Under the pieces are notes generated by a model that was not told where the DNA came from, did no database searches, and worked only from the letters and a program-made list of their open reading frames with translations. Shown one piece after another: positions 10,985 through 16,538 of a DNA stretch of 56,872 bases. Numbering within the stretch: the stretch's first letter is position 1; every line of letters begins with the position of its first letter. Source of the stretch: a virus. Taxonomy: Duplodnaviria > Caudoviricetes. Position numbers and translations under genes: made by a program. Location of the stretch: positions 1-56,872 of the IMG/VR virus record IMGVR_UViG_3300037483_000192. One strand, given 5' to 3'.

Positions 10985-13603
10985 ATGAAGCGATTTACTT
11001 CGAGTCTTGCGCTCGCCCTCGTGCTTTGGATCGGCATTCCCCTGCCCGACAGTTCCGAGGCGCAGTGGACGCGATCGCCAGAGCGCAACGCTGACGATCT
11101 GTACACTTGCGACAACGGTGACTCCATACCTGCTTATTTCGGTATTTCAGCTTCGACGATCTACTGCAACGGTATGCAGCGTGCATGGGAGCTTGCTGGC
11201 TGGCTCGGGCTGTCCGTTGCCGACGCTGCGACCATCATCACGCGGCTGCCACTCAACCCGGACGGGACGCGCAACACGAGTTGTCCGCTAGCGGGCGACT
11301 GTGATCCGCAGGTCGCTGATCTATCCTGGGATACCGCGTGCCTGAATACAGCACTCGCGATTCTCGTATCGCAGCAGACCGGGACGGCGACGAGCATTGA
11401 TATCGGGCCGCAAACGTGTCTGACCGGCACGGTCGCCGCCACGGCGACAATCACTGAATCGGGCGGCGCGGATTGGTCGATTGTCACCGCTGCCGCCGCC
11501 GAGAACCTGACGCACGCCGGATCGGTCACAGGCTCGGGCTCGCTCACGGTGACGGCGTGCGTGATGGCCAGTTGCGCGGTGAGCACTGCGTTTCCGTGGT
11601 CCTATGTCGCTCCACCGACGCCCGATGTCGACACGACGCCGCCGAATCCTGTGACGAAAGTCGAGGTCACGGCAGGAGTGGAAGAGGCTACGGTATCGTG
11701 GGATCAGGTCAGCGACCCAGCGAACGGCACGGACTGGTCGGGTATTTCAGAGTACCGAATCTACTGCGATGGGATGCTCTGCGACACGATCGCGTCTCCG
11801 AGTTCTGGCCCGATCATCGACCTGACGGAGAGAGCTATCGGCTCCCCGATGGGCGATCACTCCTGCACTCAAGACGGTGCAGAGCTGACGGTTGTCGGTG
11901 GCGGTGCGGGGCAGGACGGGACGGCGGATTCGTACTCGGGTTGCTATACCCCGTTCACAGGTGCATTCATCGCGGCGTTCGAGATTGGATCGCTCGAAGA
12001 TACGGCGATGTCTACCTATCACAAAGCCGTATTCGATGCCCGCGCATCGCTCGACGCGAATTCAGCTGCATTTTCAGCCGGGGCGATGCACACCAGTTCT
12101 GAGTTCGGTAGCAACGCTTTCACTCACAGCCGCCCACGAACGTCGGTAGGGGCATCGCGAGCCACCGCATTTAACCAGAGCGTTGGAACGGCAAACGAGG
12201 CCATCAAACCGTGGTATCGAATCGAGCGCCGAGCGAACGGAAACTTCGATGTTCACGACTCCGACGATGGGACGGTATGGACTGGTAGGCTAGATAACCA
12301 CCAGATCGCGCTTCCGAGCACGTTGGAAATCGGTTTAGCTGCAACTGCCACGAGCGACGGCGTTGACGTAGAGGCAGTATTTGATTCGTTCAGCGTCTCT
12401 ACCGGACGGCTCTCGACAACCGTCACCGGGCTGGATGCAGGCTCGATTACGTTCACGGTTCGCGCGGTAGACGCGGACGGCAACATTGGTACTGCACTCC
12501 CCGGCGTTGCGGCGGTGATTGATGCAGACGCGCCACCTTCACCTGAGACGGCGGTCAAGTGGGACCCAGGCCACGGAGTAGCTGCGGGTGGGGTTTTTCA
12601 TGTTGGAGAAAATTTCTCGGCGATCACATCAACAATCACCGCGGTTTGCAATAACTCCAACATTAAATATATTTCCGTCTGGCCAGCGTGGAATGTGCTC
12701 GAATCAGATACAGCGGGAGATTACGCTGCGGGGTTTGCGTTCACGGATCAAGTTCTTGCTGCCGCCGATGCGTGCGGCAAGAAAGTCATGATGCGGTTGA
12801 GAGACCGTGATTTTGGCGCGGCTTATGGCGGCGTTCCAGATGAAACTCAGCATTTCCCGTTCACTGATTTTCCAGCGTATTTGTATTCCGCGGCCTATGG
12901 GCCATGTTGCGGAATCAGTAACGGAGACGTGCTCGAGTATGGCGGGCTTGTCGCGTCTAATGTCGGAGTAAGTTGGGCGGGATCATTGCGCGCTATTCCA
13001 AAATTGTGGGAAGGGCAGATTATGGATCGCGTGATCGCGCTATCAGACGCGTATGCAGCCAGATACGATGACGATGCCAGGTTCTACATGTGGTCAATCG
13101 GCGAATCATCCATAGACGCTCCACCCAGCTATGCCCCTGGGGACGCTATTGTTGCGCAGTACAATAGGGCTTATACCGCAGGTGCTGAGGTTTGGCTGCA
13201 CACCATGAATCGGTTGATGGCAAACTACACGCGGACCCGTGCTCAGATGGTCACGTTGTTAGATAACTGTGTGTCTTTGCCGAACTGCATCGTAGGTGGC
13301 CCTGATCCTGCATGCACATGGGATGCCCCTAACTGGTCTAGAGAGCCGTGGTCTGTTGAGACATTCCGTGGCGAGCAGGGAGGGACGGCTAATTACGTCG
13401 GCACCTATGGATGGGTGGGAGAGGAGCAGGTACCGACGTGTAGCGGGCAAACTCAGGACATACCGGAGATCATCAACTACTATCAGACGTTGCAGATGTC
13501 ACACATGATTTGGAACTACGACCTCTCGTGGTCAACAAAAGCAGCGGCTATGGCATCTGATTCTGCGGTTGATACTGATTGCCCAGCCAATATGGCATGT
13601 TAG
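10985..13603 (+). CDS. Secreted multidomain protein: FN3, lectin-like beta-sandwich and glycoside-hydrolase-like TIM barrel
   Basis: Signal peptide MKRFTSSLALALVLW..SEA; FN3 DTTPP..VSWD..YRIY..FTVRAVDADGN; W..LE...GDY...D..L..A...GKKVM clan GH-A-like start. Confidence 0.7.
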   Translation: MKRFTSSLALALVLWIGIPLPDSSEAQWTRSPERNADDLYTCDNGDSIPAYFGISASTIYCNGMQRAWELAGWLGLSVADAATIITRLPLNPDGTRNTSCPLAGDCDPQVADLSWDTACLNTALAILVSQQTGTATSIDIGPQTCLTGTVAATATITESGGADWSIVTAAAAENLTHAGSVTGSGSLTVTACVMASCAVSTAFPWSYVAPPTPDVDTTPPNPVTKVEVTAGVEEATVSWDQVSDPANGTDWSGISEYRIYCDGMLCDTIASPSSGPIIDLTERAIGSPMGDHSCTQDGAELTVVGGGAGQDGTADSYSGCYTPFTGAFIAAFEIGSLEDTAMSTYHKAVFDARASLDANSAAFSAGAMHTSSEFGSNAFTHSRPRTSVGASRATAFNQSVGTANEAIKPWYRIERRANGNFDVHDSDDGTVWTGRLDNHQIALPSTLEIGLAATATSDGVDVEAVFDSFSVSTGRLSTTVTGLDAGSITFTVRAVDADGNIGTALPGVAAVIDADAPPSPETAVKWDPGHGVAAGGVFHVGENFSAITSTITAVCNNSNIKYISVWPAWNVLESDTAGDYAAGFAFTDQVLAAADACGKKVMMRLRDRDFGAAYGGVPDETQHFPFTDFPAYLYSAAYGPCCGISNGDVLEYGGLVASNVGVSWAGSLRAIPKLWEGQIMDRVIALSDAYAARYDDDARFYMWSIGESSIDAPPSYAPGDAIVAQYNRAYTAGAEVWLHTMNRLMANYTRTRAQMVTLLDNCVSLPNCIVGGPDPACTWDAPNWSREPWSVETFRGEQGGTANYVGTYGWVGEEQVPTCSGQTQDIPEIINYYQTLQMSHMIWNYDLSWSTKAAAMASDSAVDTDCPANMAC

Positions 13604-13738
13604 GGTGCTGGATAGTATCTATCCCAGTCGGGCGTCGTCGCCTTGCCGCAGATAACGCAGAGCAACTGGGGCGGGGGCTATTCCAGCATTTGGAGCGCGT
13701 CCAGGCGGCGTGTGCTGTTAACTGAAGGAGAAAAACCG

Positions 13739-16236: not shown

Positions 16237-16538
16237 AGAAGTTATTGTTCTTGCTGGCGTTATTTCCGCTTGCATCAATTGGGCAGATTGCTACGGATGG
16301 AGGTCCAGCGAGCGCCCAGACTGCCATTACGCCAAGCGACATCACGAGCCTACTGGATGGTAACGGCCTTCCAAGGTGCAGGGCTCTGTGGGTTACCGAG
16401 ACCGGCGATGTTGTGATCCAGGATCAGACCGGGATATCTATCACGTATCCGGCGGTCCCTGCCCATACATTGATTCCGTTTCGTCCTGCTAAGGTCATGG
16501 CCGCGACGACGGCGACCGTGGTTTGTTGGCGCAGTTAG
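16233..16538 (+). CDS. Head-spike base protein (RcGTA Rcc01079-like) with signal peptide
   Basis: PA....ITPSD...RALWV...G.VVIQD.TGI.ITY...G/H.LIP.RP.KV.A.TTAT.V.W; N-terminal MKKLLFLLALFP. Confidence 0.8.
   Translation: MKKLLFLLALFPLASIGQIATDGGPASAQTAITPSDITSLLDGNGLPRCRALWVTETGDVVIQDQTGISITYPAVPAHTLIPFRPAKVMAATTATVVCWRS

Follow-up and report, generated by a model that had tools for sequence, protein, structure and literature searches.

The closest described counterpart of the genes considered here is the head spike of the gene transfer agent RcGTA (PDB 6TB9). In the portion of the structural report on which we draw (PMC7296036), the spike consists of a pentamer of the base protein Rcc01079 and one copy of the fibre protein Rcc01080; the N-termini of the base bind the capsid, residues 2–10 of the fibre (I-A-L-G-L-G-L-G-L) form a five-point star inside the base pentamer, the fibre is lectin-like, and the spikes bind capsule. 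We analysed a stretch of viral DNA of 56,872 bp (the window), which is one complete virus record with direct terminal repeats, with a focus on four consecutive genes, g1 to g4, at positions 10985–16538. Judged by sequence, fold, and partner motif, g3 and g4 appear to be members of an RcGTA-type head-spike system, but they are unusual in their leaders, in the polarity of the anchor, and in gene order. The explanation that we favour overall, with a probability of roughly 40%, is that they encode an exported, disulfide-bonded spike of one fibre and five base subunits, which would be docked on capsids at lysis.

As far as sequence and predicted structure can tell, the product of g4 is a head-spike base homologue of the Rcc01079 type. 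A phmmer search of the PDB matched residues 24–99 to residues 13–83 (of 84) of 6tb9, "Head spike base Rcc01079" (E value 1.1e-9), and a search of PHROGs returned phrog_12296 (E value 1.5e-11). An AlphaFold2 (AF2) model built with 145 relatives has a predicted local distance difference test score (pLDDT) of 89.1, with residues 1–20 at 55–67 and six strands beyond residue 28. The best Foldseek match to this model is again 6tb9 (E value 4.4e-6, TMt 0.81, root-mean-square deviation 2.1). The resemblance to Rcc01079 that the sequence-only reading had noted is thus true both by sequence and by fold. The second-best match, chain h of the Carin1 bacteriophage mature capsid (8cjz_h of PDB 8CJZ, known here by its entry title; E value 4.2e-3, TMt 0.67, 87 residues), shares only 21% sequence identity with g4; both solved relatives are capsid entries. 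The layout of g4 is a 17-residue leader, a jellyroll at residues 24–99, and two cysteines, Cys49 and Cys98. Because the fold match is accompanied by low pLDDT over residues 1–20, the leader appears to be an addition ahead of a complete domain.

By sequence criteria, g3 is the fibre of the head-spike system, with its anchor at the opposite end from those of RcGTA and of the phages RcapNL and P8625 discussed below. The anchor consists of the last nine residues of the protein, and the stop codon that follows directly upon it overlaps the start of g4. In a six-frame translation of the window, the strict anchor pattern matched four sites, of which only the C-terminus of g3 lies in a real gene. As the end of a frame, the pattern was found in 0 of 10,443 open frames of at least 50 residues, drawn from other phage loci that total about 1 Mb. 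A C-terminal position would follow from the use of the N-terminus for export. It is probable that g3 and g4 form a 1:5 complex. A prediction run with four copies of g4 (residues 20–101, 145-row alignment) and residues 660–719 of g3 gave no answer (score 0.00) and speaks neither way on binding.

The N-terminal domain of g3, residues 24–190, matches Pfam Laminin_G_3 (PF13385) at 30.7 bits against a gathering threshold of 27.6, over positions 1–151 of the 151-position profile, and g3 is in this respect lectin-like, as is the RcGTA fibre. Of the proposal that the module carries a "lectin or glycosidase," the first half therefore stands for g3; the second, considered here for g1, was not confirmed, an ESM-Atlas lead being the only indication. 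Residues 657–696 of g3 form a PASTA-like stretch that is sub-threshold. Pfam searches with pieces of g1 and g3 (E ≤ 1) returned sub-threshold matches only, and an ESM-Atlas search with residues 195–719 of g3 gave no usable match. A domain of about 60 residues in g3, of the form YDAQSANF...TGGTSGA...GTF.DEALTG, is present in one to three copies in two other proteins at 48–61% identity, one of which also carries DUF3383. This has the look of a decoration domain that moves among phage structural proteins.

The likeness to RcGTA goes beyond the base itself, since the gene adjacent to g4 encodes a partner with five alternating I/L residues. The differences are of several kinds. Both g3 and g4 carry Sec-type leaders, and g4 has a cysteine pair where Rcc01079 has none. 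In the window the fibre gene precedes the base gene and the anchor is at the fibre C-terminus, whereas the RcGTA anchor is N-terminal. The bodies of the two fibres are unrelated (no match in PDB or BLAST searches). A small base gene adjoining an I/L-x fibre gene, as in the window, is also present in Rhodobacter phage RcapNL (gp29/gp30) and Verrucomicrobia phage P8625 (gp23/gp24). The RcapNL gene after the base homologue begins M-G-L-G-L-G-I-G-L-G-L. In P8625, gp24 begins M-I-G-L-G-L-D-L-S-L and is annotated as concanavalin A (ConA)-like, which is also the character of the N-terminal domain of g3. The bases of these two phages, however, are leaderless (82–85 residues), and their fibres are N-terminally anchored and encoded downstream of the base.

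Each of the four genes opens with a Sec-type leader, as the sequence-only reading had stated. In all four leaders, an n-region that contains one to three basic residues precedes a charge-free hydrophobic core of 10–17 residues (best 12-residue Kyte–Doolittle mean, 2.3–3.3), and a small-x-small site follows; scoring was by a crude heuristic of our own together with inspection, and the cleavage sites are predictions. Applied genome-wide, the heuristic flagged 9 of 85 greedy open reading frames (ORFs), three of them g1, g3, and g4. The g2 leader was masked by a longer overlapping frame, and four of the six other flagged ORFs lie in the lysis region. The domains of g3 and g4 begin next to the predicted cleavage sites (LamG at residue 24 and the jellyroll at about residue 21, respectively); the relatives of g1 and g2 gave no information on this point. 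The next in-frame starts past the leaders of g1, g3, and g4, at codons 64, 75, and 61, lie inside domains and would cost at least 60 residues, which excludes the reading that the true starts of these genes lie downstream of their leaders. Only g2 has a usable internal ATG, at codon 19; it could give a leaderless form and has no Shine–Dalgarno sequence. Clear Shine–Dalgarno sequences precede g2 and g4, and g2, g3, and g4 are translationally coupled through ATGA overlaps. The leaders thus look genuine and, in g1, g3, and g4, of a kind that cannot be skipped, and it is very probable that the products of all four genes are exported.

The cysteine content of the predicted mature proteins is in keeping with such a fate. 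The counts are 22 for g1, 2 for g2, 10 for g3, and 2 for g4, all of them even, and the description of the two large proteins as cysteine-rich was correct. Cysteine makes up 36 of 1722 residues (2.09%) in mature g1–g4 versus 15 of 5377 (0.28%) in 15 portal-to-tail-fibre proteins, nine of which are cysteine-free (odds ratio 7.6, Fisher p 3e-12). Together with the link between leader and cysteine pair described next, this contrast with the virion module supports the proposal of export and disulfide folding.

In an exhaustive HMMER search, 179 of 1.84 billion representatives matched at E ≤ 1e-3, and the best 150 of these 179 were examined; 148 sequences of fewer than 200 residues, g4 included, were taken as the family set. 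The sequence-only reading had suggested a survey of signal peptides among Rcc01079 homologues, and in this set the frequency of a hydrophobic N-terminal leader is 10 of 148, with an eleventh member, P0147, leader-like by eye. Because so few members carry one, g4 represents a variant subfamily. Cysteines at both columns 49 and 98 are present in 6 of the 10 leader-bearing members versus 0 of the 138 leaderless ones (Fisher p 1.6e-8), and leader-bearing P0013 has a different cysteine pair, in an inserted loop. Relatives of g4 at 34–48% identity keep the leader. The nearest relative (P0002/P0161; 54% identity, E value 2e-18) has 83 residues in two independent gene calls and neither a leader nor cysteine; it starts M/V-I-Y-T-D, one residue before the point that corresponds to the mature Q-I-A-T-D of g4. 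Four leader-bearing members share a site with cleavage after A or G and before Q-x-x-T-D, as well as a seven-residue arm before the conserved proline. In mature g4, these seven residues include Asp22. Across the family the arm has a median length of 12 and a minimum of 2, and an acidic residue nearby is poorly conserved (68 of 148). A family tree of 73 columns and 148 rows is mostly unresolved. The leader label requires nine changes on it, compared with a mean of 10.7 in shuffles, of which 16 in 500 needed as few; only two changes are forced by well-supported branches. Two members, P0142 and the above-mentioned P0147, have a leader-like N-terminus plus a C-terminal tail that is hydrophobic or basic, as if membrane-tethered.

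The position and make-up of the g1–g4 module are repeated in a second virus. The second leader-bearing base that could be placed, P0056, lies on a 49.8-kb viral contig, G001 (L083/L084), which has this base gene and one small gene in common with the window and nothing else. Upstream of the base on G001 are a 713-residue lipobox protein (31 Cys) and a peptidoglycan-hydrolase-like gene; downstream are proteins of 799, 435, and 567 residues with classic leaders and a 459-residue lipobox protein. The large terminase gene is about 1.5 kb past this run of leader and lipobox proteins, and queuosine-type genes are upstream of the run. Searches for related loci yielded none for P0003, P0004, P0005, P0013, g1, or g3, with P0005 sought among viral, metagenome, and genome sequences, and since only P0056 could be placed, the recurrence rests on one extra contig. 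The small protein shared by the two viruses (window 51856–52233, minus strand; L083 1168–1389) is 40% identical over 78 residues. Adjacent exported proteins at L083 14059–17087, one with a signal peptide and one with a lipobox, share a WESNM.T.G...C domain, and another leader-bearing protein, of 577 residues, is encoded beyond the tail genes (G001 40050–41783). The sequence ITINVKLGL, 12 residues from the stop of a short overlapping frame upstream of the G001 base, was considered as an anchor; it is doubtful and was set aside.

Leaderless bases have ordinary surroundings. In RcapNL and P8625 they close the tail or lysis region, and on viral contig L086 the base is inside a long co-directional gene run. 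The leaderless base of Rhizobium phage RHph_Y25 (L091 4956–5608) is encoded immediately upstream of the terminase genes, and no I/L-x fibre gene adjoins it.

A precedent for leader-bearing proteins in particles, according to record annotation, is offered by gp085–087 of Cellulophaga phage phi18:3 (NC_021794). The record calls these proteins structural, "based on experimental MS/MS proteomics analysis." All three have leader-like N-termini, and their genes are consecutive, between early genes and lysis and terminase genes. Like g1–g4, they are late proteins with leader-like N-termini encoded in a row, at a similar position. The phi18:3 proteins are large and, per the record notes, were reported in particles. 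They differ in having no similarity to g1–g3 and only 0, 1, and 3 cysteines, and in coming from a phage of a Bacteroidota host. BLASTP comparisons of g1–g3 with the fibres and with the exported proteins of P8625, RcapNL, G001, and phi18:3 found nothing at E ≤ 0.01.

We propose the following sequence of events. All four products would be exported through Sec, their leaders would be removed, and disulfides would form as the proteins fold in the periplasm, where mature g4 would begin at Gln18 and contain a Cys49–Cys98 bond. Five copies of g4 would close around the last nine residues (IGIGIRIGL) of one g3, in a mirror image of the RcGTA arrangement, in which the N-terminal IALGLGLGL star of the fibre is plugged into the Rcc01079 pentamer. 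The resulting lectin-bearing spike, perhaps together with g1 and g2, would reach the cytoplasmic capsids only once the holin opens the inner membrane, and would then attach to the fivefold vertices by the short arm conserved at the N-terminus (Q-x-x-T-D-x-x-P-A) and serve adsorption to surface polysaccharide. The leaders, the homology and fold of g4, the link between leader and cysteine pair, the anchor motif, and the recurrence in a second phage are shown by the sequence data; that the proteins are in fact exported and cleaved, that they form a 5:1 complex, and that this complex docks on capsids are steps that we infer. That spikes are pre-assembled in the periplasm through the C-terminal star, five base subunits to one fibre, and snap onto finished capsids only after holin triggering is a tentative form of the proposal, and one that we would put below even odds. 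The logic of the g3–g4 assembly resembles, by analogy only, that of the AB5 toxins, in which the tail of A is held in a ring of five B subunits, both subunits are Sec-exported, B has a disulfide, and the A and B genes overlap in that order. There is no homology between the two systems: g4 is predicted to be a viral jellyroll and not an OB fold, g3 matched no enzyme family, and there is no sign of toxicity.

The weakest step is the last one, that the g3–g4 complex ends on the capsid, and we hold it only with reserve. In its favour, no obvious use suggests itself for a pentameric adaptor with a single fibre except on a fivefold vertex, and both solved relatives of the base come from capsid entries. 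The module is also in the late operon, and the arm predicted for mature g4 is conserved and equals the N-terminus of the leaderless sibling. A number of points weigh against it. The accepted view is that tailed phages complete the assembly of their particles inside the cytoplasm, and spikes could meet capsids only during lysis. A literature search, with supplements outside its reach, gave no described route for periplasmic proteins onto tailed-phage capsids and no description of exported capsid or fibre parts in tailed phages. None of 80 terS-related viral loci holds g1–g4 or a base homologue within 10 kb, which makes the module accessory. No anchor motif is evident in G001 with a relaxed pattern, and two members of the G001 module are lipoproteins, pointing to the envelope over the particle. 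The RcGTA base uses its first 12 residues to bind the capsid, whereas the mature arm of g4 would have only seven. Finally, the leader-bearing members may be one clade or several, which the tree does not separate, and because the tree is poorly resolved, the association between cysteines and leader may rest on few events.

Several of these points would be accommodated if the module were exported but never became part of the virion, with g1, g2, and the g3–g4 complex acting in the periplasm or, once cells have lysed, as free lectins or enzymes on the envelope or capsule. This is a serious contender, although we would not bet on it. Such proteins might strip or mask receptors against loss of virions on debris, loosen the envelope or matrix to aid release, or exclude superinfecting phages. 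In this reading the spike base would have been reused as a soluble pentameric hub, and the secreted hub that the sequence-only reading named as its alternative is thereby still a live rival. The leaders and the disulfide signature point to the periplasm. An off-virion role also fits the accessory status of the module, the two lipobox proteins and the peptidoglycan-hydrolase-like gene of the G001 run, the PASTA-like stretch of g3, the ConA-like and possibly glycoside hydrolase (GH)-like domains of g1, and the lack of a mechanism for adding periplasmic proteins to tailed-phage capsids in the literature searched. A free lectin, however, would not need a base, yet base, fold, and anchor have all been kept. 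The seven-residue arm with its match to the leaderless sibling, the co-directional packaging and head genes that the module adjoins, and the leader-bearing phi18:3 proteins annotated from virion MS/MS also argue for a link to the particle.

It is unlikely that the leaders stay uncleaved and keep the proteins within the inner membrane or on its cytoplasmic side, as anchors or through a late failure of Sec, with docking then taking place in the ordinary cytoplasmic way. Our heuristic is crude enough to flag holin- and spanin-type membrane proteins too, and the internal ATG of g2 at codon 19 could be taken the same way. The complete set of basic n-regions, cores, and small-x-small sites in all four genes argues for cleavage, as do domains that begin right past the predicted sites (with high pLDDT for the g4 jellyroll) and retention of the leader in relatives as distant as 34–48% identity, and a reducing cytoplasm would not readily account for the leader–cysteine link or for the even cysteine counts. 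A captured cassette of bacterial secreted proteins (a moron), with no tie to the particle and an incidental resemblance of g4, is least likely of all. The only relatives of g1 are indeed bacterial-type surface proteins (P0157, with a lipobox and He_PIG, and P0158, with GH5 and DUF1349), and a 40-nt repeat scar separates g1 from g2. But the g4 family is a phage and GTA family, the anchor of g3 next to g4 ties the pair to spike architecture, g2–g3–g4 are coupled in translation, and a base with the same neighbourhood position is present in the second phage.

What is particular to this locus is that leaders are present on both base and fibre of a system whose structure has been solved, with the leader tied to a family-specific cysteine pair, and that a natural leaderless sibling exists and the fibre anchor has switched ends. 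With a solved relative whose docking is known and a leaderless sibling, the exported spike would be a test case for an exception to cytoplasmic assembly, and it makes predictions open to experiment: g4 should be cleaved before Gln18 and contain a Cys49–Cys98 bond, and the complex should rely on the nine C-terminal residues of g3. If the proposal is true, virions would mature through a post-cytoplasmic step that has no described parallel in Caudoviricetes, and phages would thereby have a natural way to obtain receptor-binding gear that is folded oxidatively. A spike that reaches the capsid would show how disulfide-stabilised lectins or enzymes can come to be displayed on particles; if it never does, an adaptor for capsids would have become a pentameric scaffold for secretion. 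In both cases the answer matters for the leader-bearing fibre genes of uncultured phages.

The other two genes of the module are less readily classified. The g1 product has, after its leader, an immunoglobulin (Ig)/fibronectin type III-like stretch, a DUF1349/ConA-like domain (residues 285–473) that resembles the DUF1349 repeats of the GH5-containing protein P0158, and a C-terminal domain (residues 523–849) that resembles the C-terminal domain of the bacterial lipoprotein P0157 (28.7% identity, E value 3.5e-27). A word-based homologue search found two weak partial relatives each for g1 and g3, and only g4 itself for g4. The ESM-Atlas lead for the g1 C-terminus, considered as a possible TIM-barrel glycoside hydrolase of clan GH-A, has a score of 0.90, with GH42 on 15% of cluster members; Pfam gave no match to a glycosidase in g1, and a profile search of the PDB with the alignment of the C-terminal domain gave nothing below an E value of 0.2. 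The AF2 model of this domain, from a two-row alignment, has a pLDDT of 32.6, too low for a fold search. In g2, the two cysteines of the mature protein are 32 residues apart, a spacing that suggests an Ig-like pattern. The direct repeat listed in Table 1 may be a scar of duplication, recombination, or module shuffling.

Table 1. Positions of the module, its parts, and landmark genes in the window
Feature	Position	Strand	Remarks
g1	10985–13603	+	872 residues; upstream ATG at 10952 is an alternative start
g1 leader	10985–11062	+	26 residues; predicted cleavage between SEA and Q, by inspection
g2	13739–14080	+	113 residues; 20-residue leader, predicted cleavage between AMA and E; GGAG 8 nt upstream
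40-nt direct repeat	13621–13660 and 13930–13969	+	93% identical; g1–g2 spacer and interior of g2
g3	14077–16236	+	719 residues; 19-residue leader, predicted cleavage between AQA and A; ATGA overlap with g2
TGGTSGA repeat domain of g3	15205–15396	+	residues 377–440; found in other phage structural proteins
C-terminal anchor of g3	16207–16233	+	I-G-I-G-I-R-I-G-L, then stop; five alternating I/L after a GGAGA linker
g4	16233–16538	+	101 residues; 17-residue leader, predicted cleavage between SIG and Q; AAGGA upstream; ATGA overlap with g3
Small ORF after g4	16548–16760	+	70 residues, acidic, no leader
Small ORF before terS	16788–16979	+	63 residues, helix-turn-helix (HTH) protein
terS	16972–17433	+	Sf6-type small terminase; landmark for module position
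Major head protein	23558–24538	+	followed by tail and ejection proteins and tail fibre
Endolysin	36636–37052	+	followed by small membrane proteins

In the window, g1–g4 sit between a leftward block of small genes (9751–10851) and the packaging genes. They are on the late-gene strand, at the head of the late operon; from 16972 on, the plus strand encodes the Sf6-type small terminase, the large terminase, the portal, and then head and tail genes. The sequence-only reading had placed the four genes just upstream of terS. Their consecutive order is borne out, but two small ORFs intervene. Gaps of 9 and 27 nt follow g4, and the ORF that encodes the HTH protein overlaps terS, so the module runs straight into the packaging genes; a scan of the stretch between g4 and terS found no promoter- or terminator-like site. 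For the major capsid protein and a neighbouring 172-residue protein, no sequence relatives were found in the PDB. Past the endolysin gene, small membrane proteins are encoded at 37049–38575 (plus strand), among them one with a lipobox (LLAGC, by inspection; 37338–37655) whose gene overlaps the preceding one, in the manner of an i-/o-spanin pair. We infer that the virus is a phage of the short-tailed type and, on the basis of this lipobox/spanin-like pair, that its host is diderm.

Two further small ORFs on the plus strand may be mentioned. Between the portal and the scaffold region, a 101-residue ORF (21291–21596) starts M-N-R-R-Q-L-I-K followed by a hydrophobic stretch, which is twin-arginine-like; its match to Pfam TAT_signal has an E value of 0.057, below the cut-off. 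The other, an 82-residue ORF in the terS–terL interval (17414–17662), consists of 7.3% cysteine with CxxC-like spacing and may be of the zinc-finger or HNH type.

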